Below, piece by piece: positions 1 to 56,344 of a stretch of 64,000 nucleotides of DNA. Under the pieces are notes generated by a model. The model saw nothing but the letters and a program-made list of their open reading frames with translations. It had not been told where the DNA came from and did not search any database. Source of the DNA: Candidatus Kaelpia imicola (GTDB lineage: Bacteria; Omnitrophota; Gorgyraeia; Kaelpiales; Kaelpiaceae); the NCBI GenBank assembly GCA_030765505.1, contig JAVCCL010000004.1, forward strand, positions 35,933-99,932, read 5' to 3'. Position 1 is the stretch's first letter; every line of letters begins with the position of its first letter. A program made the position numbers and the translations under genes.

Positions 1-35
1 TTTAGGCACCCTAGCATTACTAAAATGATGTATTT

Positions 36-1778
36 ATGACAAGCAGTAATTTTTTTAAATTAGAAGCAGCAGACTTAAAGAAAAGTTTTCTTGATTTAGA
101 TAGCATTCAAGATTTGGCTGCTCTTTTAGATGTAAGATGTAGCTTAGTAACATACTATGCTTTTATTCTGCCCGACAAAATAAAATATAAAAAGTTTACT
201 ATTCCTAAAAAATCTGGAGGTCAAAGAGAGATTAATGCTCCGATATTGCCATTAAAAGCAATTCAAAATAGATTAAATTTTATTCTACAAAATATTTACA
301 CCCCAAAGTCTTATGTGCATGGTTTTGTTAAAAAAAGAAGTATCCTTACTAATGCACGAAACCATGTATCTAAAAGTTTTGTTGGCAATATTGATTTAAA
401 AGATTTTTTCCCTTCTATTAATTTTGGTAGAGTTAGGGGGGTGTTCATAGCAGCTCCTTTTGAATTTAACAATAAAGTAGCAACAGCATTAGCACGTATT
501 GCATGTTTTGATAATTATTTACCGCAAGGAGCTCCGACTTCGCCTATAATTTCCAATCTCATTTGCGTTAAACTAGATAGTAGACTATCACAGCTTGCAA
601 GAAAATATGATTGTTTTTACACTCGATATGCAGATGATTTGACTTTCTCTACGTTGTCTAGTGTTTTCCCTGAAGCAATTTTAAAAAAGGAAGTAGTTAA
701 TGGTAGAGAAGATATTGTAATTGGAGAAGAATTAAAAAACACAGTGATAGATAATGGATTTAAAATAAATAAAAAGAAATTAAGATTAAAAGACAAAAGA
801 CAACGGCAAGAAGTTACAGGATTAACCACAAATGTTTTTCCAAATGTAAACAGGAAGTTTATTAGGCAGGTTTGGACGATGATTCATATGTGGTATAAGC
901 ATGGTTTAGCCTCTGCTGAGAAAGAGTATTTTAATCGCATAGACGATAAGTTTAGAAATCCGAAACATAAACGTCCGTCATTTAAAGAAATACTTGTTGG
1001 CAAGATAGATTTTATCGGGCAGATAAGGGGAAGGCAGGATAGGATTTATTTAAATTTATGTAGAACGTTTAGGAAGCTTTGTCCGAAGAAAAAATTCTAT
1101 GTTGATTATGATGATGAAAGTTTACCATTGATTATAACAGAGGGTAGTACCGATAGAATACATCTTAAGGCTGCCTTAAGAACGTTATATTCTAAAAGGT
1201 TGTATAGGTATCTAGATGTACGTTTTAATGAATATACACAAAGCATGGGTTCTGGTGCTTTGTCTAAATTATGTAAAGAGATGTGTAAAGTGCAACAACC
1301 AGTAAAAACAATATTTATTTTTGATAGTGACGAAGAGGAGTATATTGTATTTGCAAATGAGGGAGGTAGATGCGGTGCCCCTAGATATTGGGGCAATAAT
1401 GTGTTTTCCTTTTCATTGCCGATACCTCCCCACAGGCAAAAACAATCTTATATTAGTATAGAGCATTATTATAAAGATGATGAGATTAAGAGATTGGATA
1501 GTAACGGGTGTAGATTATTTTTTAAGAATGAATTTGACTGGAATACTAAGGAGCATCTTTCTGAGAATTTGAAAATAAAAGAAGACAAAAAGATAAAAGG
1601 AACAAAGCTTACCTCAATAATTGACCATAATATTGTTAGCAGTAGTAATGATGCTAATATGGTATTGTCAAAATCTCTGTTTGCAAAAAATGTGTTACAC
1701 AAAGAAAACAATTTTCACGATTTTAATTTCGATGAATTTACTAGAATCTTTGATTTAATTAATGAAATATTAAGATAA
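36..1778 (+). CDS. Retron-type reverse transcriptase fused to a C-terminal TOPRIM-like nuclease domain (Retron-Eco2/Ec67-like architecture)
   Basis: 580-aa ORF. RT motifs: IPKKSGGQREINAP, NIDLKDFFPSINFGRVRG block (characteristic of retron RTs as I recall them), LPQGAPTSPIISNL, catalytic YADD box (aa 198-201), retron-typical VTG motif (RQEVTGL, aa 258-264). C-terminal aa ~364-485 shows TOPRIM-type acidic motifs IITEGSTDRIHLKAAL (conserved Glu) and FIFDSDEEE (DxD) about 60 aa apart. Confidence 0.8.
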   Translation: MTSSNFFKLEAADLKKSFLDLDSIQDLAALLDVRCSLVTYYAFILPDKIKYKKFTIPKKSGGQREINAPILPLKAIQNRLNFILQNIYTPKSYVHGFVKKRSILTNARNHVSKSFVGNIDLKDFFPSINFGRVRGVFIAAPFEFNNKVATALARIACFDNYLPQGAPTSPIISNLICVKLDSRLSQLARKYDCFYTRYADDLTFSTLSSVFPEAILKKEVVNGREDIVIGEELKNTVIDNGFKINKKKLRLKDKRQRQEVTGLTTNVFPNVNRKFIRQVWTMIHMWYKHGLASAEKEYFNRIDDKFRNPKHKRPSFKEILVGKIDFIGQIRGRQDRIYLNLCRTFRKLCPKKKFYVDYDDESLPLIITEGSTDRIHLKAALRTLYSKRLYRYLDVRFNEYTQSMGSGALSKLCKEMCKVQQPVKTIFIFDSDEEEYIVFANEGGRCGAPRYWGNNVFSFSLPIPPHRQKQSYISIEHYYKDDEIKRLDSNGCRLFFKNEFDWNTKEHLSENLKIKEDKKIKGTKLTSIIDHNIVSSSNDANMVLSKSLFAKNVLHKENNFHDFNFDEFTRIFDLINEILR

Positions 1779-2051
1779 TTTAATTAAAAATCCAACTTCA
1801 ATATGCTGTTTATGGAGTAAGTGCATATATTTTTTAAAATTTTTCAATAATCTGTACTAGATTACCTTAATATTGTTGCTTGTTCCTTTATGTGCCTAGT
1901 AAAACTGTAGATTAATTTAGAAAGGTAAGTAATATATGAACGGGATATTAAACGGACAAGAATCGGTATTTTATAAATTATTTCGGTATATTTTTTTGCT
2001 AATTTCGAGAGATATTTCTAAGGAAACCACCTTGAAAAGCTTATGATTTTG

Positions 2052-2060
2052 TGGTATAAT
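2052..2060 (+). promoter_or_regulatory. Extended -10 promoter element (TGgTATAAT) in the long RT-downstream intergenic region
   Basis: Sequence tgTGGTATAAT; perfect TATAAT with TGn extension; no coding ORF follows for ~460 bp. Confidence 0.4.
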
Positions 2061-2112
2061 TTAAAAGTTAAGTAAGAGTTCCTTTAAAATGTTTATTTAG
2101 CAAAGAAAAGAT

Positions 2113-2141
2113 TTAGACGAATTAGAGATTCGTGGTATAAT
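2113..2141 (+). promoter_or_regulatory. Sigma70-like promoter (TTAGAC -17- TGgTATAAT)
   Basis: Second copy of the same gTGGTATAAT element with a -35-like TTAGAC at 17-nt spacing; transcription would run toward the 2523 ORF through a ~380-nt leader. Confidence 0.45.
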
Positions 2142-2522
2142 GTATCCGATAGTTCGAGAATCAATCTAAAAAATATTCCATCTAGCAGGGAAGATTAAAT
2201 TTCGGTATTTTATTCAATGTAGTATTGTCGATTAATTTAGATGTTAGTTTATAAAAAAGTTTTTTCCAATATATGGATGGATGGGGGAGCGTAGTATTGA
2301 TAAATTTTAATAACTTACGAGGAGGTGATGTCTATGAGAAATTGATATGGTAGTATTTTGTTGGTTGTTTGGGGTAGCGTAGGTCTAAGGCATTCTAAAG
2401 GAAGAAATTCCACCGTAGAGCTTATATAGAAATAATAATACATTTTCTATGAATTATTCTCCCTGAGCATTAGTCGAGGTTAAATAAAATGTTAACTTTA
2501 ACAATGTTTAAGGAGAATAATT

Positions 2523-3776
2523 ATGTATGCAGAAAACAGCAAAATTAACGTAGTATTAGTAGAGCTAGAAGTAAAAAAACATTTCCCCAAACTTTGGAAG
2601 GCTACCGAAGCTTCTTTAGCAACAGTTGCAACGCTCCTGTTGAAAAATAATGCTAACCCCACATCTTTAGTGTTGATAGGTCCAGTCTCATCTGGAAAAT
2701 CAACAGTACTAAGTTTTTTCCAAGGGTTAGAAAAGATTACTTACTGTACCGATTATTTTACAGCTAAAGCACTTGTTACTCATTATGCAAATAAAGATAA
2801 AAAGGAGCTAGATGATTTAGACCTACTTAAAAGAATCAAAGGTAAAAGTATGGTCGTTTCTGATTTAGGATGCATTTTTGGCTCCAAGAAAGATAATCTA
2901 AGAGAAACCCTAGGTATATTTACTAGAGCTTTAGATGGAGAAGGTCTTCTTACTGATTCTGGAGTTCATGGTAGGCGAGGGATTAAGGGGAGTTGTATGT
3001 TTGCAATGCTTGGAGGTACTACTCCATTTAAGTATAAAATATGGGATGAAATGGGGCGATTTGGCTCTAGGATGTTGTTTATTACAATGCCTTTTCTAGA
3101 GGATGAGACTAATGAAGATATCAAAAATGATTTTAAAGGTGAATTATCGTATTTAGAAAAAAGACAATTTTGCGGAGGGGAGGTCAATCAATATTTAAAA
3201 GATTTATGGGAAGAAACTGGCGGATTTCAATCTATCGATTGGGATGATAGTAGTACTTCAAGTGAGATTATGGATTTTATAATTGAATCTGCCAGATTGT
3301 TATCTAAGCTCAGAGGGTTAGTCCCGATATGGAACAGTAGCGATGGAGAATTCCAGTATCAACAACCTACAATAGAAGCTCCTCATAGAGCTATCTCTTT
3401 ATTTCTTAACTTAGCAAAGGGTAGGGCAATCATTAATGGAAGAAGGCAAATATGTATAAATGATATGGCTCTAGTGCTTGATGTGGCACTTAGTTCATGC
3501 CCGTCAGATAGAGGGAAGATATTTAAGGCACTGGTTAAATCGGAAAATGGTACTTTAAATACTCAAGAAGTATGCGAAGTACTCAATGTTAGTACTAAAA
3601 TAGCTTTAAGAGCTATGGAGAATTTTAGTATATTAAAAATAGTAGAGCATTACGATAGAAAGGAAGGAGTAGGTAGGCCTGGTTGTGTTATTCGCTTAAG
3701 AAAGGAAATAAAGGAGTGGACTGAAACTTCTAATTTTAAGCAATACTTTGCCGAAAACGAGAGTGATATAGGGTAA
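2523..3776 (+). CDS. P-loop NTPase with C-terminal winged-helix/HTH-like domain (possible replication-initiator or helicase-like ATPase of a mobile element)
   Basis: 417 aa. Walker A GPVSSGKST; candidate Walker B MVVSDLG; C-terminal segment TQEVCEVLNVSTKIALRAMENFSILKIVEH resembles a wHTH DNA-binding fold. Family assignment is not possible by eye. Confidence 0.5.
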   Translation: MYAENSKINVVLVELEVKKHFPKLWKATEASLATVATLLLKNNANPTSLVLIGPVSSGKSTVLSFFQGLEKITYCTDYFTAKALVTHYANKDKKELDDLDLLKRIKGKSMVVSDLGCIFGSKKDNLRETLGIFTRALDGEGLLTDSGVHGRRGIKGSCMFAMLGGTTPFKYKIWDEMGRFGSRMLFITMPFLEDETNEDIKNDFKGELSYLEKRQFCGGEVNQYLKDLWEETGGFQSIDWDDSSTSSEIMDFIIESARLLSKLRGLVPIWNSSDGEFQYQQPTIEAPHRAISLFLNLAKGRAIINGRRQICINDMALVLDVALSSCPSDRGKIFKALVKSENGTLNTQEVCEVLNVSTKIALRAMENFSILKIVEHYDRKEGVGRPGCVIRLRKEIKEWTETSNFKQYFAENESDIG

Positions 3777-3883
3777 TATATACAATACTTTATTATATAT
3801 ATATATAGTTATTGTTGTTATGTATCACTTAGTAAAAAGTAAAAAAACTACTAAAGAAACTACTAAAAAATGCTAGAGAAAAT

Positions 3884-3942
3884 GAACGATAAGTATGTTT
3901 TTTGTACTTATCGTTCAAGGGGGAACTATTTGGTTCCCCCTT
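3884..3942 (+). other. Two consecutive stem-loops between the NTPase and HTH genes (12-bp AT-rich stem, then 11-bp GC-rich stem aagggggaac/ggttccccctt)
   Basis: Perfect inverted repeats gaacgataagta...tacttatcgttc and aagggggaac-tattt-ggttccccctt. No U-tract follows either, so not a canonical intrinsic terminator. Confidence 0.4.
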
Positions 3943-4019
3943 CAGTATAACTAAGAACTTAATGCTTTACTCTATGCTACTATTCAGCTATAATATGTTA
4001 TAAGATGTTCTAATATACT

Positions 4020-4208
4020 ATGAATATAATAAAAGAACTTAAAGATTACCGATTAAAGAACAAAATTACTCAACAAGAATTAGCTAAGATGCTAGAAGTA
4101 TCATTTGCTACTGTAAATAGGTGGTTTAATGGACATACTAAGCCTAGTGAAATACAGGAGTATCATATAAAAGAACTACTAAAAAAGGAGGAGATAAAGG
4201 CTAAATAA
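4020..4208 (+). CDS. Small HTH DNA-binding protein, excisionase/AlpA-like (HTH_17-type)
   Basis: 62 aa; ITQQELAKMLEVSFATVNRW is a classic HTH signature. A -10-like TATAAT lies at ~3988-3993. The gene's 3' end is embedded in the first att-like repeat. Confidence 0.6.
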   Translation: MNIIKELKDYRLKNKITQQELAKMLEVSFATVNRWFNGHTKPSEIQEYHIKELLKKEEIKAK

Positions 4209-4290
4209 GAAAGCACTAGAAACAAGGTTTTTACAGGCTCATACCCGTATTGTCAGTGGTTCGAGTCCACTCACCGCCATTTCTAATCCT
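4186..4290 (+). repeat. att-like repeat copy A with tRNA-like 3' terminus (cagtggttcgagtccactcaccgcca)
   Basis: Contains a T-arm-like GGTTCGAGTCC plus an acceptor-like strand. Shares the HTH-gene 3' end plus the gaaagcactagaa...ggctcatacccgtattgtcagtgg block with copies B, C and D. Confidence 0.6.
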
Positions 4291-4451
4291 ACCTAATAAA
4301 TACATGCAATTTTAAAAAACTTATAAAGTAATTTGACAACACGAAATTATATGGTATAAATATATTGGAAATAAATTGCTCTTAGGGTGGGGAGCTTGAA
4401 ATAGATGAGATGAGAATAAAAGGTGTGAAAAGTAAAAAAGGAGGTTAGAAG

Positions 4452-5072
4452 ATGAAGAATTTAATAGTAATTGCGGCAATGGGGTTTTTAGGAATAACAA
4501 TGTTTAGTTTACCAAGTTTTGCTGTACCTTGGGAACAAGAAAAGATGCCTATAGATTGTGAGTACATACAACAAGAAAATCAACCAGCAATTGTCGGCAG
4601 TTTAGAAAAAATGGAATACGTCGACTTTAAGAAAGGGGCTGCTAAAGATATTGCATACTCATTAGAAGATGTTGATATGGATAGTTTAAATAAGGCCTTA
4701 GAAGTCATAGATAAAGCTTTATGTTCTTCATTGGTAGGTGGTGCATGTGTATTACCTATAGATGTTGAGAAGATAACTAGGCAACTAATGGCCATTGTAG
4801 GTGTATATTCAAAACAAGAAATGGATATTGAAGCTGAAACTGAATCTTTTACTAAAAGAATAGACGAATTTATCACGTTTAAATATCCTGATATACAAGA
4901 TTTTGCAATCGATGGCTACGTTCTGGGTATCCTTTTGAATATTTATAGTTGTGATTTAAGAAATATTTCATTTGAATGGCATGACTATAACGAAAGAGCT
5001 CTTAATGATTTAAGCAGAACTCCATTTGAATGGCATAACTATAACGAAAGAGCTTCTGATGAAGACAATTAA
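4452..5072 (+). CDS. Secreted hypothetical protein with C-terminal tandem repeat
   Basis: 206 aa; N-terminal signal peptide (MKNLIVIAAMGFLGITMFSLPSFA). A 33-bp DNA direct repeat (4969-5060) encodes FEWH(D/N)YNERA twice. Confidence 0.55.
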   Translation: MKNLIVIAAMGFLGITMFSLPSFAVPWEQEKMPIDCEYIQQENQPAIVGSLEKMEYVDFKKGAAKDIAYSLEDVDMDSLNKALEVIDKALCSSLVGGACVLPIDVEKITRQLMAIVGVYSKQEMDIEAETESFTKRIDEFITFKYPDIQDFAIDGYVLGILLNIYSCDLRNISFEWHDYNERALNDLSRTPFEWHNYNERASDEDN

Positions 5073-5095
5073 TCTTTGATTACGATCTAGATTAG

Positions 5096-5130
5096 AAAGC
5101 CCGTCATTAATTTGACGGGCTTTTCTTTTT
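5096..5130 (+). terminator. Rho-independent terminator
   Basis: aaagcccgtca-ttaatt-tgacgggcttt followed by ttttcttttt. Confidence 0.8.
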
Positions 5131-5185
5131 GTATATTCCTATTTAATTCCGTAGTAAAATAATACTATAAATACTAACCGCTTAA

Positions 5186-5360
5186 CCCCAAAAGGAGGCG
5201 ATGGAGGCTAAGCAGGGAAGTACTAGTAGTCAGTAGGGTCAAAACGTTAGTTTTCTGGCGTTAGCCGTGGCTCATACCCGTATTGTCAGTGGTTTAGTGG
5301 AGCATCCCGAGATAAAATATCTATAGTTGAATTTCAACGGGGCGAGTCCATCCACCGCCA
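5186..5360 (+). repeat. att-like repeat copy B (long form) with tRNA-like 3' end split by a 48-nt segment carrying a 13-bp palindrome
   Basis: ccaaaaggaggcgatggaggctaag...ttagccgtggctcatacccgtattgtcagtggtt[48 nt]cgagtccatccaccgcca; ~80% identical to copy D over ~170 nt. Confidence 0.6.
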
Positions 5361-5475
5361 AAGTCTCTTCTTTTGATTGGCTTGTTTTTTCTTTTGCAAT
5401 AGAATATTTTTGGATTAAAATATAATACAAAAGATAAAATTTGTTATTTTAACACTGTTTATTTCTGCCTGTATC

Positions 5476-5706
5476 TTGCCTGTTAATATTTTATATTCTC
5501 AAGAATATGGTGGTCTCACGGATTGGGAGTGGCAGGTGGTTAATGAGCTTGAGGATAGATTAGATGCTTTGGGGGATTGGCCAGATTGGGAAGATACAGA
5601 CAGAGTGGTTATGGAAGTAGCAAATAAGTATAGGCTTACTAAAGATGAACTGTATGATCTTGATGAAATAGCATTTTATTTACGGATATATTTGGGGGAT
5701 TTTTAA
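5476..5706 (+). CDS. Small acidic Trp-rich hypothetical protein (TTG start)
   Basis: 76-aa ORF, only non-ATG start in frame; very acidic (DWEWQVVNELEDRLDALGDWPDWEDTD). Coding status uncertain. Confidence 0.3.
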   Translation: MPVNILYSQEYGGLTDWEWQVVNELEDRLDALGDWPDWEDTDRVVMEVANKYRLTKDELYDLDEIAFYLRIYLGDF

Positions 5707-5729
5707 AATAAAAGTTGATTTGTAATTTA

Positions 5730-5795
5730 GGTGGTTTAATGGACATACTAAACCTAGCGAGATACAAGAGTATTATATAAAAGAACTACTAAAAA
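5730..5795 (+). pseudogene. Fragment of a second excisionase-like HTH gene (3' end only)
   Basis: ~90% identical to 4120-4190 (ggtggtttaatggacatactaa...aaagaactactaaaaa); no 5' part or start codon. Confidence 0.6.
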
Positions 5796-6017
5796 CCCCA
5801 AAAGGAGGAGATAAGGGCTAAATAAGAAAGCACTAGAAGTAAAGTTTTCTGGCATTAGCCGTGGCTCATACTTGTAATATTGGTGGTTCAAATCTACTCA
5901 TTGCTATATCTACATTTTACCGTGGTTAATTTATGTTAAATCGGTAGATTAGCGAAGCATCTCGAATGAAAAGCATCGTAGAGTAACTTCATTTGGGGCA
6001 AATTTACTTCCCGGCAT
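5796..6017 (+). repeat. att-like repeat copy C (degenerate)
   Basis: ccaaaaggaggagataagggctaaataagaaagcactagaag...ttagccgtggctcatacttg...tggtggttcaaatctactcattgc, plus a degenerate version of the 48-nt segment (tagcgaagcatctcgaatg...ggggcaaatttacttcccggca). Confidence 0.5.
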
Positions 6018-6191
6018 TATAACTTCAGCTGATAATCGATAATAAGCAGTGAAAATTTTATACCTCGGCAAAAATTCTATCCCAACTACGAAGTGGTTTT
6101 TTGTTTTTAGCTTATAGCCAATAGTCAAAAATATCCTGCCGTAATTTGTAAAGCACTTAAATATAAGTTATATTTATTATGAGAGGTAAGA

Positions 6192-7079
6192 ATGAAAGAT
6201 TATAAATTTAAGGTTTTTGGATTAATCTATTTAGCATTAATGAGTTGTATTTTGTTTTGCACTGACTCTGCTTATGGAAGGAGAGTTAAAGAGAGTGTTA
6301 TACAAAGAAATTTCAGTTTGATCGAAGACAGATTCAGTGAAAATATCGCTAATAAATTGTTAAACCTCAAGTTAAATGGGAGGGAGATAGGTAGAGAAGT
6401 ATTGGCAAGAGGAACTTTAATAGGAGGCCTTGAACCCGTATTAATACTTAGAGCTGTATTGGAAGATAATTTTGAAAATACTCTATTTGGTCAAGAACCA
6501 AATTGGGATGAAATTGCCAGCGAAATAAGCTTTTTTTTCGATATGGATATTGAGCAGTCCAAAAGACAATGGATTAATAAAGAAGATGTAATTGGTTGTA
6601 TGGGATATGTGTATCCCAATATATCCAAAGGAACAATAGTAAGCGTAAAGAGTATTTTTAATTATAACTATACTCACTCTGTTGCAGAATGTTTAGCAAT
6701 AAGTTTATATGATAAGGATTCAGGAATAATTGCACTAGTACATTTAAAACCCAATTTGTTTTTTTCAGAACAAGAAAAAGTTAAACTCTGGATGGAAGTA
6801 ATCAATGATACTCTATATAGGTTAAAAGACAGAGGTGCTGATTTAGGAAATTTGGAGGCAAGAATTATTGGGGGGAGCGTATATATTCTTGAAACCGGCA
6901 CATATATTTTTAAAACTGAAGAAGAAAAGATTGCTGCTGTGAAGAGAATTCTTAAAGTTTATCAAGTACTTATAAGTTTAAATATCCCGATTGTTGAAAG
7001 AGATATCTTGAGAACAGAGCGTTCTAATGATTTAATAGTCTCTGCCTATGACGGGTTATTCTATAATGTGCGCCCATAG
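6192..7079 (+). CDS. Hypothetical exported/membrane protein with C-terminal CheD-like (chemoreceptor glutamine deamidase-like) domain
   Basis: 295 aa; N-terminal hydrophobic segment. ECLAISLYDKDSGIIALVHLKPN and RLKDRGADLGNLEARIIGGS resemble the CheD motifs around the catalytic Cys and His and the GG loop, as recalled from B. subtilis CheD. Confidence 0.4.
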   Translation: MKDYKFKVFGLIYLALMSCILFCTDSAYGRRVKESVIQRNFSLIEDRFSENIANKLLNLKLNGREIGREVLARGTLIGGLEPVLILRAVLEDNFENTLFGQEPNWDEIASEISFFFDMDIEQSKRQWINKEDVIGCMGYVYPNISKGTIVSVKSIFNYNYTHSVAECLAISLYDKDSGIIALVHLKPNLFFSEQEKVKLWMEVINDTLYRLKDRGADLGNLEARIIGGSVYILETGTYIFKTEEEKIAAVKRILKVYQVLISLNIPIVERDILRTERSNDLIVSAYDGLFYNVRP

Positions 7080-7277
7080 TATAGGGAGAGTTTGGTAATT
7101 AGTTTAATTTTGCAAAATAACAAAGAAATATAGACAAAATTAGCAAGGAAAGAACAGATAGTTAATAATTTACCAAATCCGGTGGGCTTTTCTTTTTATA
7201 TCTTTCCACCTCATTTCATAGTAAAATAATAGCAATTGCGGATGTTTTCTCCCGAATTTTAATCCAAGGATTAAATA

Positions 7278-7745
7278 ATGCAAATAGAGCAAGTTGTAAT
7301 TGATGATTTGTCAGAGATTTTAAGCTTACAGAAGTTAGCATTTCAAAATGAAGCTGAAATCTATTCTGACTGTAAAATTCCGCCTTTAACCCAAAGCTTG
7401 GAAGATATAAAAGAAGAATTTCAACAGAAAGTTTTTTTAAAAGCTGCGGTAAATAGTGAAATAATCGGTTCTGTGAGAGCATTTAAAGAAAAGAGGTCTT
7501 GTTATATTGGAAAACTTATAGTACACCCTGATTTTCAGAATCAGGGTGTCGGTACAAGGTTAATACAGGAAGTAGAGGGGATCTTTAGAGATGCTGAATA
7601 TTTTGTATTATGGACAGGACATAAAAGTGAAAAAAGTATTTGTTTTTATCAGAAGTTGGGCTATAAAGCAGTTAAGGCTACATTCGATATTAGAGATAAT
7701 AAATTTTTACGCTTAGAAAAAAGAAAATATAGAGTAACTGAGTAG
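7278..7745 (+). CDS. GNAT family N-acetyltransferase
   Basis: 155 aa; acetyl-CoA binding motif A VHPDFQNQGVGTRLI. Confidence 0.8.
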   Translation: MQIEQVVIDDLSEILSLQKLAFQNEAEIYSDCKIPPLTQSLEDIKEEFQQKVFLKAAVNSEIIGSVRAFKEKRSCYIGKLIVHPDFQNQGVGTRLIQEVEGIFRDAEYFVLWTGHKSEKSICFYQKLGYKAVKATFDIRDNKFLRLEKRKYRVTE

Positions 7746-7808
7746 GTATATATTTCTTTTATCCCGTTTCAGATGTTGTTGAAAGAAGGGAATAAGCTAC
7801 TAAAAATA

Positions 7809-7969
7809 TCCAAAAGGAGGCGATGGAAGCTAAGACAGAGAAGCATTAGTAGCCGGTTTTCTGATGATAGCCGTGGCTTATACCTATAGTGCCGGTAGTT
7901 TAGCGGAGCATCTCGAGATAAATATCTATAGTTGAATTTCAACGGGGCAAGCCTACTCACAGTCAGTAG
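7809..7969 (+). repeat. att-like repeat copy D (long form); probable right boundary of the accessory region
   Basis: ccaaaaggaggcgatggaagctaag...atagccgtggcttatacc...tttagcggagcatctcgagataaatatctatagttgaatttcaacggggcaagcctactcacagtcag; homologous to copy B including the 13-bp palindrome. Confidence 0.6.
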
Positions 7970-8020
7970 TTTTGGAGTTTTTTTATTGATTCTTTTTAAA
8001 TAAGGTGTAACTTAAATACT

Positions 8021-8368
8021 ATGATTGAGCGTCGTAAATATCCAAGATTAGATAATTTTCTTAGTGTTAATTATAAGGTATTAGGTATAGACGATTCTCT
8101 GGTTAATACCGTATGTAAGAATATCAGCGCAGGAGGGATATGTTTTCCTGTTAAAGAAGATATACAACAGGAGACTCTATTGGAAATAGATATCTATATC
8201 AGAGAGATAAAGAAAGGTATCCAAGCTAAAGGCAGGGTCGTCTGGTTAAAAAGAAGAGAGGATAAATGTTATCCTTATATTGTAGGTGTTGAATTTACCG
8301 AGATTGAAGATGGTGAGCGTGATTTTATTCTTCATTATGTTTGGGAAAAATTGAGGGAAAAAGAATAA
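8021..8368 (+). CDS. PilZ domain protein (c-di-GMP binding)
   Basis: RRKYPR (RxxxR) and NISAGG (D/NxSxxG) motifs. Confidence 0.75.
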   Translation: MIERRKYPRLDNFLSVNYKVLGIDDSLVNTVCKNISAGGICFPVKEDIQQETLLEIDIYIREIKKGIQAKGRVVWLKRREDKCYPYIVGVEFTEIEDGERDFILHYVWEKLREKE

Positions 8369-8492
8369 TCCAGACCGTTAATAGTTTCATTACTATCATT
8401 ACTTAATAAACTTGGCTGTATCTGTAGTGCAAAATGAGTATTCTTTATCAGCTTTATTTTCTCAGGAATTCTAGTAAAATAATTTCTGTTAT

Positions 8493-9482
8493 ATGAAGTT
8501 AAAAAATGAGGTTAGAGATACTATATCTGAATATTTTCTCATAAAGAGAGGAGAGAATATCTTGCTATCAGTATCGGGTGGACCCGATTCTGTTGCTATG
8601 GTTTATATCCTAAATGAGTTAAGATCTGAAATAGGATTTAATATGGCTCTGGGTTATTTTCATCATGGGATAAGGAAAGATTCTGATAAAGAACAGAAAT
8701 ACGTAGAAGGACTTGCTGCTGTTTTTAAAATTGATTTTTATACTAAAAGATCTGATATACCTCTTATTTCAAAAAAAGAGAAGAGTTCTCTTGAGGATAC
8801 TGCAAGAAGAGAGAGATATAAGTTTTTAATATCAACAGCTAAAAGGAGAGAGTTTGATAAGATAGCCGTTGCTCATAATAGCGATGATCAGGCTGAGACT
8901 ATATTGCAAAGATTGATGCGGGGCTCAGGGTTAAGAGGTTTTAGAGGTATCTCTTTCAAGATGGATATGGATGGAGTAGAGATAGTAAGACCGTTACTTT
9001 CCTCTTCAAGGAAAGAGATAGAGAGATATTTAGAGAAGAATAAGATATCTCCATGCATAGATAAGAGTAATTTTGATACTAAATTTAATCGTAATAAGGT
9101 TAGACATGAGTTGATACCTTATATAGAAAAGGAATTTAATCCAAACATCAAAGAGCTTCTCTGTAAAACAGCCTCCAACATGTCGCAGCTGCATAGTTTT
9201 ATAGAGGCTGAAGTTGAAGATGTTTTTAAAAGGTGTGTGAAAAAGGAATCTTCTTATGTTAAGATAAAGACCGATAGATTAAAAAGATTCCATTCTTATA
9301 TTATGGCGGAGCTTGTGAGAAAAGCAGTTGAGGTGGTTAAAGGAGATCTAAAGAGGTTTGAATATTCTCACTGGAAAGAGATAGAGTCATTAATTTATGA
9401 ACGTCCGGATAATTCCGTAGTAGATTTACCTGGAGGGATAAAGGTTAGGAAAGCGAAATCTTGGATAACTATAGGGAGGTAG
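8493..9482 (+). CDS. tilS: tRNA(Ile)-lysidine synthetase
   Basis: PP-loop SVSGGPDSVAM; ~330 aa; conserved position upstream of ftsH. Confidence 0.85.
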   Translation: MKLKNEVRDTISEYFLIKRGENILLSVSGGPDSVAMVYILNELRSEIGFNMALGYFHHGIRKDSDKEQKYVEGLAAVFKIDFYTKRSDIPLISKKEKSSLEDTARRERYKFLISTAKRREFDKIAVAHNSDDQAETILQRLMRGSGLRGFRGISFKMDMDGVEIVRPLLSSSRKEIERYLEKNKISPCIDKSNFDTKFNRNKVRHELIPYIEKEFNPNIKELLCKTASNMSQLHSFIEAEVEDVFKRCVKKESSYVKIKTDRLKRFHSYIMAELVRKAVEVVKGDLKRFEYSHWKEIESLIYERPDNSVVDLPGGIKVRKAKSWITIGR

Positions 9483-9488
9483 ATAAAT

Positions 9489-11351
9489 ATGGAGAAGAAG
9501 AAAAAAGATAAAAAGAGAGAATATCGCAATAGGAGTCTTTTAATTTGGCTTCTGGTTATGGTTTTGTTCTATATGTTTTGGCAGAGTAATGTAGATCAGG
9601 GGTTAAGCCAGATAGAGCTTAAATACTCAGAGTTTTACAAAATGTTAAAAGAGAGTCCTGATGATATAAGATCGGTTGTTAAGACCGAAAATTTAATAAG
9701 AGGTGAATTGAAAGACGGGACTGAATTTAGAGTGATGATTCCTAATGAAGACAGGGATTTCATAGTTCTTATGCGGAATAATATATCTGATTTTAGAGTA
9801 GAACCTCCTAAAACATTGCTATTACAGGTTCTTTTCTCCGTTGGACCAATTTTGCTCTTCATTGCTTTTCTTTGGTTCTTGCACCGTGGTTCAAAAGGGG
9901 GAGCAGGCAGGATATTCTCGTTTGGAAAGATGAAGACTAAGTTTGGCTTGGATGGACAGGGCAAGGTTACCTTTGATGATGTTGCCGGGGTTGCAGAAGC
10001 AAAGGAAGAGTTAAAAGAGATAATAGATTTTCTTACAGATCCAAAGAAATTTCAGCGCTTAGGAGGAAAGATTCCAAGAGGTGTTCTTTTAACAGGACCT
10101 CCTGGAACAGGTAAGACACTTCTTGCAAAGGCTGTAAGTGGAGAGGCTGGAGTTCTCTTTTCATCTCTATCGGGATCAGATTTTGTTGAGATGTTTGTTG
10201 GCGTAGGTGCTGCAAGAGTTAGAGACTTATTTGAGCAATCTAAGCGCCACACTCGTAATACCGGTAAGGGCTGTATTATATTTATAGATGAGATAGATGC
10301 TGTTGGTCGTCAGAGGTTTGCAGGTATAGGCGGAGGGCACGACGAGAGAGAGCAGACTTTAAATGCTCTTTTAGCTGAGATGGACGGCTTTGGTACTGAT
10401 GAGAGTGTTATAGTTATTGCAGCAACCAATAGACCGGATGTATTAGACCCGGCACTGCTTAGACCGGGTAGATTTGATAGAATTATTATTGTTGGTAGCC
10501 CTGATGTAAAGGGAAGAGAGGACATTCTTAAGGTCCATGTAAGGAATAAGAAAGTTGCAAAAAGAGTAGATTTAAATAAGATTGCGCGTCAGACTTCAGG
10601 GTTCTCAGGTGCCGATCTTGCCAATCTATGCAACGAGTCAGCTCTTTTGGCTGCAAGGCGCGGTAAAGATGAGATTACAATGGATGAAATGGATGAATCG
10701 ATAGATAGAGTTATGGCAGGTCCGCAGAGAAAGTCAAGAGTGATGAGTGAACATGAGAAAAAGCTTACCGCTTTCCATGAGGCTGGACATGCCTTAGTAT
10801 CGCTGCTTTTGCCCAATGTTGAGCCGCTACATAAGGTCTCTATTATTCCTCGCGGTATGATGGGGGGGTATACGAAGTTTTTAGAAGAAGATAAAGAATA
10901 TCAGACAAAAAATGAGATATTAGATAAAATTACTGTTGGTTTAGCAGGACGAGCGGCGGAGGAACTTGCTTTGGGTGAGATCTCAACAGGTGCTAGCCAT
11001 GATATTGAGATTGTGACTAAATTCGCGCGTAATATGGTCTGTGTTTTTGGTATGAGTGAGAAACTGGGTAATGTATCTTTGGATAAGCATTCAGGGCCTG
11101 TCTTTTTAGGTAGAGATCTTGTTGCAGAGAAACATTATAGTGAGAAGACGGCTGAAGAGATCGATAAAGAGATAAAGACTATAATAGATCAGTGCTATCA
11201 CACTGCAAAACAGCTGCTTGGAAAGAACCGTGAAAAGTTATATCTCCTGGCCAATACTCTTCTTGATAAGGAGACTTTGGAGGGGGATAGAGTAAGAAAG
11301 CTCTTGGGTATCAAAGATAAGAAGAGAGATGAGCAAAATAAGAGTTCTTGA
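9489..11351 (+). CDS. ftsH: ATP-dependent zinc metalloprotease FtsH
   Basis: TM N-terminus; AAA Walker A GPPGTGKT; second region of homology; zinc motif HEAGHA. Confidence 0.95.
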
Positions 11352-52828: not shown

Positions 52829-53330
52829 GTACTATTATCTGATATCCCAGCTTCCTCTATTGGATTTTGATGGTAAGAATTATATCAGCAGTGACTACTT
52901 TTTAGAGCAGGCAGCCAAGTGGTTGAGCCCTGCAGATTTCAAGGTTTTAAAAAAAGCGAATATAGATGATATCTATGTTAGCGATAGCGATAAAGGTATC
53001 GTAAGAGAGTATAAGAGTTTTGAATACAATTTAAGAGATAATATTGTTAAATTCAGGGAAGGCAGTTTAGAATCTATAGTTGATGAAAACTTGAAAGCGG
53101 TTTTAGTTAATACAGATCCTCTTAAAATTGAGCTGGAGATATTCTATCTGAGGTGGAGTTTCATTGACCAAATTGGATCATATCATCATTTTGATTTAGA
53201 GAGTACAGTGGTTTACTTCTATAAGCTTCAGATTTTAGATAAGATTTCCCAGTTTGATAAAGAGAGAGGGAAAAAGTTATTTAACAGCAGTTCAAACATT
53301 AGTTACGAGGCGGTAGTCTATGAAAGTTAA
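52821..53330 (+). CDS. Hypothetical protein in the V-ATPase operon (DUF2764-like, as in chlamydial E-x-A-B-D-I-K operons)
   Basis: 169 aa; positional equivalence with the hypothetical gene between atpE and atpA in Chlamydia-type V-ATPase operons. Confidence 0.4.
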   Translation: MDRYYYLISQLPLLDFDGKNYISSDYFLEQAAKWLSPADFKVLKKANIDDIYVSDSDKGIVREYKSFEYNLRDNIVKFREGSLESIVDENLKAVLVNTDPLKIELEIFYLRWSFIDQIGSYHHFDLESTVVYFYKLQILDKISQFDKERGKKLFNSSSNISYEAVVYES

Positions 53331-55080
53331 TAGAGGCAGCATTCTATCTATAAGCGGGAACATGATAACTGTAAAACCGCAAAGTCATATCATGCAGAAT
53401 GAGTTGGGCTATGTTTTAAAAGGAGAGCAGCGTCTTAAAGCCGAGGTTATTAAGATCAGAGGAGAGGCAGCGTATATGCAGGTTTTTGAGGATACCAAAG
53501 GTCTTAGAGTAGGAGATGAGGTTGAATTCAGCAATCAGCTTCTTTCGGTTGAACTTGGACCGGGTCTTCTGGGCAGTATATACGACGGTTTGCAGAATCC
53601 TTTAAATATTCTTGCTGATGAGTATGGATTTTTTTTACCTCGAGGAGTCGATATAGCAGCTTTGGATCTTAAAAAGAGATGGCATTTTACCCCTCTTGCT
53701 AAGGAAGGAGATCTATTGTTGGCCGGAAACTATATTGGTTATGTAGAAGAAGAGATTTTTAAGCATTATATAATGGTGCCTTTTGATCTTAGCGGAGAGC
53801 ATCTTCTTGAGAGTCTGAAGCCTGAGGGTAATTACAGTGTTAAAGATACTATAGCTACGGTAAAAGACAGATCAGGCAATAGTGTTGATATCACCATGTC
53901 TTTTCGCTGGCCTATAAGAGTGCCTATTACTTCATACAGGAAGAGGCTTCAGGCTATTGAGCCGTTAACTACGCGTATTAGGATAATTGATACTTTCTTT
54001 CCTGTGGCTAAGGGGGGGACTTATTGTATTCCCGGTCCTTTTGGGGCTGGGAAAACAGTATTGCAGCAGTTGACTTCAAGATATGCTGAGGTTGATATTG
54101 TAATTATTGCTGCCTGCGGTGAGAGGGCAGGTGAGGTCGTTGAGACGTTAAGAGAGTTTCCAAAACTTAAAGATGATAGGACTGGTAAGTCTCTGATGGC
54201 GAGGACAATAATCATCTGTAATACCTCTTCTATGCCTGTTGCTGCCAGAGATGCTTCGGTATATACTGCGGCAACTCTCGGGGAATACTATAGACAGATG
54301 GGTTTGGATGTACTGCTTCTGGCTGACTCTACTTCACGTTGGGCTCAGGCGATGAGAGAGGTTTCAGGCAGGCTGGAGGAGATCCCGGGCGAAGAGGCTT
54401 TTCCGGCTTATTTGGAATCGCGTATAGCTGCTTTCTATGAAAGGTCTGGCGTGGTTGAACTTTTAAACGGAGAGAGCGGGTCTCTTACAATAGGAGGAAC
54501 AGTATCCCCGGCTGGCGGTAATTTCGAAGAACCTGTTACCCAATCAACATTAAAGGTTGTCGGAGCTTTCCATGGCTTATCCCGCGAGAGGTCTGATGCC
54601 AGAAAGTACCCTTCTATATCCCCTCTGGAGAGTTGGTCCAAATATAGGAGCTTTATTGTAGAGGATATAGTAGCTTATGCCAAAGAAGTGATATTTAAAG
54701 GCGATGAGGTTTTTCAGATGATGAAGGTTGTTGGCGAAGAAGGTGTGGCAGATGAGGACTTCTTAATATATCTGAAATCCGAGTTTTTAGATTATGTCTA
54801 TTTACAGCAGAATGGTTATGATAGAGTGGATGCTGCTACGCCTCTAGAGCGCCAGGATTATGTTTTTTCAAAGGCTGACTATATCCTTAGATCTAAAGTT
54901 AATTTAGAAACAAAAGATGAATTAAGAGCTATCTTTTTTAAATTACGTCAGATGTTTCTGGACTGGAATTATACCAAGTGGAATTCTTCGGAATTCAAAA
55001 GCAAAGAAAAAGAGATAGATGAATTTATTAAAAGAGAGGTTTTAAAGAAAGATGAAGAAGCTGTACAGCAAGATAGATAG
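53320..55080 (+). CDS. atpA: V-type ATPase catalytic subunit A
   Basis: Walker [10 protein letters not shown]; 586 aa. Confidence 0.95.
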
Positions 55081-56344
55081 TATTGTAGGAGATGTTATCA
55101 CTGTAAAAGCTAAAGGTATTAGTTATCATGAGCTGGCCGAGGTGAACACTAAAAAGGGAAAGTCTTTTGCTCAGGTTATAAGTTTAGATAGAGAGAATGT
55201 CTCTCTTCAGGTTTTTTCGGGAAGCCGAGGCATATCTACTGCTGATGAAGTTAGTTTTCTATCTCATCCTATGCAGGTTCCTTTTTCGGAGGATATGCTT
55301 GGAAGAGTCTTTGACGGCAGCTGCAGGCCAAAGGATGGAGGGCCTGCTATAATCGGAAACAATATTGAGATAGGCGGTTCTACAGTCAATCCTGCAAAGA
55401 GGAAGATACCAGACCGCATGATAAGAACCAATATACCTATGATAGATATTTTTAATTCTCTAGTTGTTTCTCAGAAGCTTCCTATATTTTCAGTCTCTGG
55501 CGAACCTTACAATGAGCTTTTAGCTCGAATTGCAATACAGGCTCAGGTTGATATAATCATTTTAGGCGGTATAGGTCTGAAGTTCGATCAGTATATGTTT
55601 TTTAAGAATAGACTGCAGAGTAGCGGTGCTTTAAGCAGGTCAATATTTTTCGTGCATACCGCTTCTGAACCAGTAGTAGAGAGCATTATGATACCGGATA
55701 TATCTTTGGCTGTAGCTGAGAAGTTTGCTTTATCGGGTAAGGATGTGCTGGTTCTACTTACAGATATGACTAACTTTGCCGATGCGCTTAAAGAGATTGC
55801 CATTACTATGGAGCAGGTTCCTTCAAATAGAGGTTATCCTGGAGATCTCTATAGTCAATTAGCAGCCAGATATGAGAAGGCTGTGGATTTTGAAGATAGC
55901 GGTTCTATTACAATACTTGCAGTTACAACCATGCCGGGTGATGATGTTACCCACCCGGTTCCGGATAATACAGGTTATATTACCGAGGGCCAGTTCTATC
56001 TTCGTAATGGCAGAATAGAACCCTTCGGCTCTTTAAGCCGGCTGAAGCAGCAGGTCAATGATAAAACTCGTGTTGATCACAGGGCTATTATGAATGGCAT
56101 GATACAACTATATGCTGATTATAAGGAGACAGAAGAAAAAAGAGACATGGGTTTTAAGATGAGTGTTTGGGATCAAAAACTTCTTAAGTATGGAGCTGTC
56201 TTTGAAAAGGAGCTGATGGATCTATCTGTGAATATACCTTTGGAGACTGCCCTGGATAAAGGATGGCAGATTCTCTCGGGATGTTTCCAGCCTGAAGAGG
56301 TTCCATTTCGGACTGAATTGATCAAAGAGTTTTGGCGAGGCTGA
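55052..56344 (+). CDS. atpB: V-type ATPase subunit B
   Basis: Non-catalytic alpha/beta fold; 430 aa. Confidence 0.9.

Follow-up and report, generated by a model that had tools for sequence, protein, structure and literature searches.

A probable single-protein type I-C retron of an I-C3-like lineage in the genome of an Omnitrophota bacterium

We analyzed a 64-kb stretch of DNA (hereafter the window; contig JAVCCL010000004.1, positions 35,933 to 99,932 of the forward strand) from the metagenome-assembled genome (MAG) of Candidatus Kaelpia imicola, a member of the Omnitrophota, which belong to the PVC group together with the Chlamydiae. The gene at window positions 36..1778 very probably encodes the protein of an anti-phage system, a type I-C retron with a single protein, carried on a low-GC island of this Omnitrophota genome and belonging to an I-C3-like lineage distinct from Retron-Eco2. 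The first-pass annotation of the same DNA had proposed a retron-type reverse transcriptase (RT) fused to a TOPRIM domain, in the manner of Ec67/Retron-Eco2. The gene and its two domains are laid out as follows.

36..1778, + strand: complete RT-TOPRIM fusion gene, 580 aa (NCBI protein MDP8215824.1), matched over its full length by PADLOC RT-Toprim_I-C
93..1085, + strand: retron reverse-transcriptase domain (aa ~20-350), delimited by Pfam RVT_1, the Ec67 alignment, motifs and Foldseek
1113..1775, + strand: TOPRIM nuclease (effector) domain (aa ~360-580), with seven catalytic positions

Because in-frame stops at nt 3-5, 12-14 and 21-23 precede the open reading frame (ORF), whose first start codon is the ATG at position 36, the gene cannot be extended past the window edge. 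Its product is 100% identical to MDP8215824.1 (P0001), encoded on a 105-kb contig of the Candidatus Kaelpia imicola MAG and currently named only "reverse transcriptase domain-containing protein" in the database. Its closest relatives, which occur in Omnitrophica, Chloroflexota, Cyanobacteria and Burkholderiales as well as in many metagenomes, share only 43-51% identity with it. At least 120 protein clusters (90% identity) have the same RT-TOPRIM architecture, and about 750 representatives (50% identity) bear its TOPRIM module.

All of the retron RT hallmarks that the first-pass annotation had pointed to (NIDLKDFFPSINFGRVRG, YADD and VTG) were found in the N-terminal half of the protein, where the NAxxH motif is present as well.

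351..365, + strand: retron motif NAxxH (N106-H110; aa 106-110)
387..440, + strand: NIDLKDFFPSINFGRVRG (aa 118-135)
519..545, + strand: LPQGAPTSP
627..638, + strand: catalytic YADD (Y198-D201; aa 198-201, against 199-202 in Eco2)
813..821, + strand: VTG (V260-T261-G262; aa 260-262)

RVT_1 (E 2.1e-18, aa 56-263) was the sole Pfam family recognised in the protein. The top PADLOC match was RT-Toprim_I-C (PDLC02965, E 2.8e-158, aa 25-578), one of the model pair 02965/02968, and the ten top PADLOC models were all of types I-C, XII or XI. When PDB sequences were searched with phmmer, the Retron Ec67/Eco2 chains came out best (E 7e-66, aa 22-386, an alignment running through the TEGxTDRI motif), followed by other retron RTs. 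All the best hidden Markov models for the RT region were retron RTs, and so were the best folds, with Foldseek matches to Eco2, Ec86, Eco7, Ec78 and Eco8. At the level of sequence comparison, the matches to RVT_1, RT-Toprim_I-C and Ec67 rule out a chance resemblance. It is also extremely unlikely that the gene encodes a non-retron protein, either a type XII RT-TIR protein or another defence RT (DRT/UG, Abi or group II intron-like) to which a TOPRIM domain happens to be joined. Pfam indeed sees nothing beyond RVT_1, and the PADLOC RT-TIR_XII models align nearly full length to the window protein (E 3e-145); however, the retron-specific NAxxH and VTG are both in place, group II intron and Drt2 models reach merely 48 and 34 bits, and the relatives of the gene carry a classical a1/a2 msr-msd RNA, described below. 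A type XII assignment was rejected, given that NCBIfam Retron_TIR covers aa 23-356 only and that the effector fold is TOPRIM and not TIR. The near-full-length RT-TIR_XII alignment fits a published remark that XII is a wrong label for some I-C sequences (PMC12916289). Two of these models, PDLC02961/02962, align nearly full length to TOPRIM proteins (the window protein and P0005), which suggests that they were built partly from mislabelled I-C sequences.

The C-terminal half contains the following TOPRIM features.

1131..1178, + strand: IITEGSTDRIHLKAAL (aa 366-381), TOPRIM motif region
1140..1142, + strand: E369, TOPRIM catalytic position
1152..1154, + strand: D373, TOPRIM catalytic position
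1314..1340, + strand: FIFDSDEEE (aa 427-435)
1323..1325, + strand: D430, TOPRIM catalytic position
1329..1331, + strand: D432, TOPRIM catalytic position
1455..1457, + strand: S474, TOPRIM catalytic position
1461..1463, + strand: E476, TOPRIM catalytic position
1671..1673, + strand: K546, TOPRIM catalytic position

Motif IV reads E369-G370-S-T-D373 (EGxxD; TEGSTD) and motif V D430-S-D432 (DxD; FDSD), and no variation was seen among 120 family members at E369, G370, D373, D430, D432, E476 or K546. The catalytic set of Eco2 (PMC12405507) comprises E374/D460/D462 for metal A, D378/S513/E515 for metal B, and K562; the window protein has the same seven residues, at E369, D430, D432, D373, S474, E476 and K546. 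Structure prediction was needed to establish the C-terminal fold, since sequence-only tests were weak: a Pfam scan of the protein gave no Toprim family match, and a phmmer search of PDB with the C-terminal 227 residues (aa 354-580) reached merely E 0.0076, to Ec67 and over the TEG motif. We therefore relied on a full-length AlphaFold2 model built from 120 homologues (mean pLDDT 94.1). When this model was compared with PDB using Foldseek, the top five matches were all Eco2 chains (E down to 6.9e-39, ~640 aligned columns), the other retron RTs in the list matched the N-terminal half only, and no TIR structure was among the matches. Eco2 was likewise the best structural match of the isolated effector domain, followed by DNA nucleases (OLD family, GajA and AriB). 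On the predicted structure, the window protein thus combines a retron RT with a TOPRIM nuclease that appears to be active. The first-pass annotation was right about the domain and its Glu...DxD signature, both supported by the fold match and the catalytic residues, but had taken it to be ~120 aa long, whereas it spans ~220 aa (aa ~360-580). An OLD-family nuclease was rejected, as the N-terminal part is an RT and no ATPase was matched in Pfam or NCBIfam; unlike the window protein, OLD family members, Gabija GajA and PARIS AriB have no RT and no msDNA (multicopy single-stranded DNA) control; their activity is controlled through ABC ATPase domains or partners, which the window protein lacks.

Proteins of other architectures (P0144, P0169, P0172, P0176, P0179, P0204 and P0218) also carry this TOPRIM module, at E <= 1e-30 against aa 355-580 of the window protein. 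In them it is joined to STAND/NB-ARC NTPases (N-terminal position), to an ABC ATPase (AAA_21/AAA_15), to a methylase of the Eco57I/MmeI type, to a DEAD helicase and to an FtsK-like ATPase. Fusion to such varied partners is typical of immune effector domains, and the module appears, from these sequence matches, to be a promiscuous one.

Type I-C retrons have been divided into three variants by their TOPRIM motifs and non-coding RNA (ncRNA) family (Mestre et al. 2020, PMC7736814), namely I-C1, to which Eco2 belongs (EGxxD as motif IV, DxD as motif V, ncRNA family IC), I-C2 (EGxxD, DxE, ncRNA family IC) and I-C3 (clade-8 RT, EGxxD, DxD, ncRNA listed as not determined). The window protein is not I-C2, because its motif V is DxD (D430-S-D432) and not DxE. 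With Retron-Eco2 (Ec67; I-C1, from E. coli; PDB 9LM3, 9I2F/9I2G/9S1F) it shares a one-polypeptide design, with the retron RT at the N-terminus and the TOPRIM domain at the C-terminus, but the RT regions are only ~40% identical (~41% to I-C1-like RTs), the TOPRIM domains about 18-26%, and the host is an uncultured Omnitrophota bacterium instead of E. coli. The NCBIfam family NF038237 (retron_Ec67_fus) scored 381.4 bits against a cut-off of 450 and aligned with aa 19-388 only. Hence, of the Ec67/Retron-Eco2-like label given in the first-pass annotation, the one-protein architecture stands, while membership in the Ec67/I-C1 family proper does not. Furthermore, I-C1-like proteins from Thalassolituus and Hydrogenophaga match a different PADLOC pair (02966/02963, ~745 bits) from that of the window protein. 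A rough neighbor-joining tree of the RT region, the kind of phylogenetic check that had been suggested for this gene, grouped the window RT with clade-8-like retron RTs: it falls with RT-TOPRIM proteins of Omnitrophica and metagenomes, apart from the I-C1-like clade, and I-C1-like RTs are more distant from it than are clade-8 RTs that bear other C-termini. The PADLOC models and this tree thereby place the window RT, by proxy, in retron RT clade 8 along with types XI and XII. The RTs of type XI (RT-protease) and type XII (RT-TIR) are closely related to it (PADLOC E 1e-145 to 1e-128), whereas the effector is a TOPRIM domain in the window protein, a TIR domain in type XII and a serine protease in type XI. 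Retron I-C3 (PMC7736814) combines a clade-8 RT with a TOPRIM domain bearing EGxxD and DxD, as does the window protein, which we infer to be I-C3-like by exclusion and not by comparison with I-C3 reference sequences. In a 2026 survey preprint, I-C3 is a known type with a low count, and ncRNA models are given for I-C1/I-C2 only.

Although the I-C3 ncRNA was listed as undetermined (PMC7736814), relatives of the window gene have a clear one. Across 12 distinct full-length relatives, the upstream sequences contained, in 12/12 cases and directly before the ORF, a conserved unit made of a TATAAT box, an a2 arm, an msr hairpin, an msd region and an a1 arm, in keeping with the earlier proposal that a structured msr-msd RNA flanked by a1/a2 arms should lie immediately upstream of the RT. 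In order, the TATAAT box is followed by the a2 arm (14-20 nt), AATTGATTTTT, the hairpin GTCGTTGATCCNGCGAC, AAGTATCnAAAGGT and the msd, which consists of one or more variable hairpins, and then by a GAATTG-like motif and the a1 arm complementary to a2. The RNA is ~145-180 nt long, and its a1 arm stops 3-40 nt short of the start codon, mostly at a distance of 7-22 nt. RNAalifold, run on a MAFFT alignment of the 12 RNAs, recovered a 17-bp a2/a1 stem and a 7-bp msr hairpin with compensatory changes in 22/27 pairs. An independent count gave 88.5% paired cells, compared to 40-49% when partners were slid by 1-3 columns, and a covariation score of 0.60 compared to <=0.19 in the slid controls; in a shuffle test, the observed value was matched in 0/500 shuffles on four of five measures. 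Moreover, a covariance model of these RNAs (R1) detected the ncRNA upstream of 22 further RT genes outside its training set. Rfam searches of ten of the relatives' loci returned no retron family, and these RNAs match no Rfam family. In Eco2 the parts of the ncRNA come in the same order (a2, U-rich linker, msr hairpin, msd, a1, RT ORF), and I-C1-like loci carry an RNA of like layout (a2, AUUUU, hairpin, A-rich stretch, a1) but of different sequence; R1 missed all four I-C1-like loci examined (L055, L058, L067 and L071).

R1-family ncRNAs were also seen before clade-8 RTs with other C-termini (L005, L007, L008, L012, L016, L083 and L086), which include an RT with Schlafen/AlbA_2 (L007), RTs with a ~170-aa module bearing an ECxW/K motif (L016 and L086) and proteins of ~355-375 aa that consist of the RT only (L005, L008, L012 and L083). 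Because the same ncRNA precedes RTs with such differing C-termini, the ncRNA and RT together would form a chassis that carries swapped effectors. In a cyanobacterial relative (L001, 3648-3950), the ncRNA is unusually long, with ~300 nt and several hairpins between a2 and a1, implying a much longer msd and msDNA.

For the window gene itself, the first-pass annotation had correctly noted that only 35 nt precede the RT, and these 35 nt upstream of the ATG are non-coding. Given the geometry of the ncRNA in relatives, that of the window gene should fill roughly the 150-175 nt before window position ~15-30 and would thus lie almost entirely off the window, as had been anticipated; no copy was found elsewhere in the window. 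What might be left of it is the following.

1..15, + strand: possible 3' end of the a1 arm (TTTAGGCACCCTAGC), assigned by position only and cut by the window edge

These nucleotides loosely resemble the a1 arms of the relatives L172 and L162 (TCTACAGGTACCCCCTAT and TTTACAGGTATTCCCC), and their complement, roughly GCTAGGGTGCCTAAA, is the sequence expected in an a2 arm. R1 gave no significant partial match to nt 1-15; the resemblance is suggestive, and the segment may be the tail of a1. When R1 was run on the 64-kb window with filters off, its best hit was at 13.7 bits (E 0.23) in a coding region, and msr motif searches of the window gave 0 matches. Rfam at the gathering threshold returned only three tRNAs from the window, and at an E-value threshold only a spurious microRNA match from nt 1-4500. 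An ncRNA downstream of the gene was considered and rejected, the spacer at 1779-2522 having only promoter-like repeats and no Rfam or R1 match. This non-coding spacer (745 nt) contains two TG-extended -10 promoter-like sites (TGGTATAAT) within a 16-nt direct repeat at 2048-2063 and 2129-2144.

An ncRNA missing from the window, with no copy detected by R1 in 64 kb, would also be seen if the gene were an orphan or decaying retron whose ncRNA had been lost or disrupted, for example by rearrangement of the island, leaving it without msDNA and non-functional. We consider this very unlikely, as the ORF is intact, every catalytic residue of both domains is present, and the ncRNA of the 12 relatives adjoins the ORF at precisely the point at which the window breaks off. 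Fragments of Eco2 without the RT domain are toxic, whereas the full-length fusion is not (PMC12405507); by analogy, a released TOPRIM domain should be harmful, and a gene deprived of its ncRNA might therefore be expected to gather inactivating mutations.

In Eco2, the RT-TOPRIM protein and msDNA form a 3:3 complex in which msDNA cages the TOPRIM domain, the phage endonuclease DenB degrades msDNA, and the freed TOPRIM cleaves tRNA, halting translation (PMC12916289, PMC12405507). We assign the same msDNA-guard logic to the window system because the architecture, both folds and every catalytic residue are shared with Eco2 and the family has an ncRNA; by analogy with Retron-Eco2 we infer that this genome contains the ncRNA, that msDNA is synthesised and cages the nuclease, and that the trigger and the RNA substrate are alike. 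A promoter ~170-200 nt upstream of the ATG, off the window, would drive a single transcript comprising the ncRNA (a2, msr, msd hairpin(s), a1) and then the RT-TOPRIM ORF. The RT domain would bind the ncRNA, use as primer the 2'-OH of a branching G next to the a2/a1 stem and copy the msd region into msDNA, and the bound msDNA-RNA hybrid would keep the TOPRIM nuclease inactive, probably in an oligomeric state. During infection, the msDNA would be degraded or altered by some phage factor, for instance a DNA endonuclease, and the freed two-metal TOPRIM site would cut RNA (tRNA in Eco2), so that translation stops and the infection aborts.

The main alternative to this mechanism concerns the substrate. 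Within the same retron architecture, the TOPRIM domain could act as a DNase, like OLD, GajA and AriB, and degrade phage or host DNA, or it could trim the msd template in an RNase-H-like manner during msDNA maturation. The DNA nucleases are its nearest structural neighbors after Eco2, its identity to the Eco2 TOPRIM is low, and an RNase-H-like role was once proposed for Eco2 (PMC12916289). Both possibilities are unlikely in our view, the best structural match of the isolated domain being Eco2 itself, with all seven catalytic residues in common.

Several observations weigh against an I-C retron that works like Eco2. The ncRNA itself is not in the window, and nt 1-35 show no obvious ribosome-binding site. 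The score for the Ec67 fusion family falls below its cut-off and reflects an alignment that ends at aa 388. The TOPRIM domain is distant from that of Eco2, with a sequence link that extends barely beyond the TEG motif, and for this reason it may differ from Eco2 in what it cuts (tRNA, other RNA or DNA), in how it oligomerises and in what triggers it. In the literature searched, no experiment on any I-C3-like member was found.

The genomic surroundings of the gene are consistent with a mobile origin. The GC content is 31.3% in the RT-TOPRIM gene and 32.5% in nt 1-8400, against 38.1% in the remainder and 37.3% in the whole window. This island (nt 1-8400) holds mostly ORFans, including a P-loop protein (2523-3776) and an HTH_3 (helix-turn-helix) protein (4020-4208), and housekeeping genes begin at ~8.5 kb, with a PP-loop/TilS-type gene at 8493, ftsH at 9489, folP and cdaA. 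A further feature lies outside the retron.

4256..4279, + strand: tRNA/tmRNA-like 3' fragment with T-arm, acceptor strand and CCA (GTGGTTCGAGTCCACTCACCGCCA)

The fragment is unique in the window (0 expected by chance) and is without a 5' half; tRNA calling found no full tRNA there, and it weakly matches a tmRNA 3' end (E 0.06). A tRNA 3' fragment lacking its 5' half is the usual signature of an attachment site. The fragment is probably an attachment-site remnant at one end of an integrated island bearing the retron, which would thus ride on an integrated element with its other end upstream of the window. Complete tRNA genes abut the retron in two actinobacterial relatives (L025, 3723-3796, and L009, 5672-5744; Arg-CCT and Thr-TGT), consistent with tRNA-targeted insertion of such islands. 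Relatives are found in the company of defence genes: they lie beside an AbiJ/Abi_C protein and a methylase (L161), adjoin type I restriction-modification genes (L162) or lie downstream of ResIII and methylase genes (L166), and in L167 (3436-5957) the ncRNA and RT-TOPRIM gene are inserted between hsdS and hsdM of a type I restriction-modification system. As for the host, the V-type ATPase that had been described as Chlamydia-like is real (A/B subunits at 53320-56344), but the lineage is Omnitrophota and not Chlamydia.

The P-loop (2523-3776) and HTH (4020-4208) genes were considered as accessory retron genes and rejected, since they are not conserved beside relatives and gave only a generic HTH match among defence models. 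The former encodes 417 aa with a Walker A motif (GPVSSGKST) and had no Pfam, PHROGs or PADLOC match and a negligible NCBIfam match. In the ORF at 6192-7079 (295 aa), the C-terminal ~100 residues weakly match the NCBIfam CheD deamidase (E 2.5e-06, 28 bits versus a cut-off of 240). In two related loci, the RT-TOPRIM gene is directly followed by an ORF of 278 aa (L164, 4224-5060; L166, 5761-6597) that has no Pfam match.

The window gene represents a known type of defence system that existing PADLOC models already detect, and the result is in this respect mostly confirmatory. It extends single-protein retron immunity to the Omnitrophota, mostly uncultured and very small bacteria of the PVC group for which the literature searched contained no mention of retrons, and it points to a well-populated and little-studied branch of type I-C retrons. 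Beyond the window, the analysis yielded an ncRNA model for the lineage, an ncRNA-RT chassis common to different C-terminal effectors, and a TOPRIM module that has also spread to STAND NTPases, ABC ATPases, methylases, helicases and FtsK-like proteins. The R1 model and the architecture it describes (promoter, a2, msr hairpin, msd, a1, ORF) could aid annotation pipelines and help in the search for compact RT-plus-ncRNA units for genome editing. A bolder reading, possible though on balance doubtful, is that there exists a large I-C3-like retron lineage in which the ncRNA-RT chassis takes interchangeable effectors (TOPRIM, Schlafen/AlbA_2, the ~170-aa module or none), and that its divergent TOPRIM, with a different substrate, assembly or trigger, defines a second mechanistic class of single-protein retrons. 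If so, this lineage would in addition be the first one on record from the ultra-small Omnitrophota.

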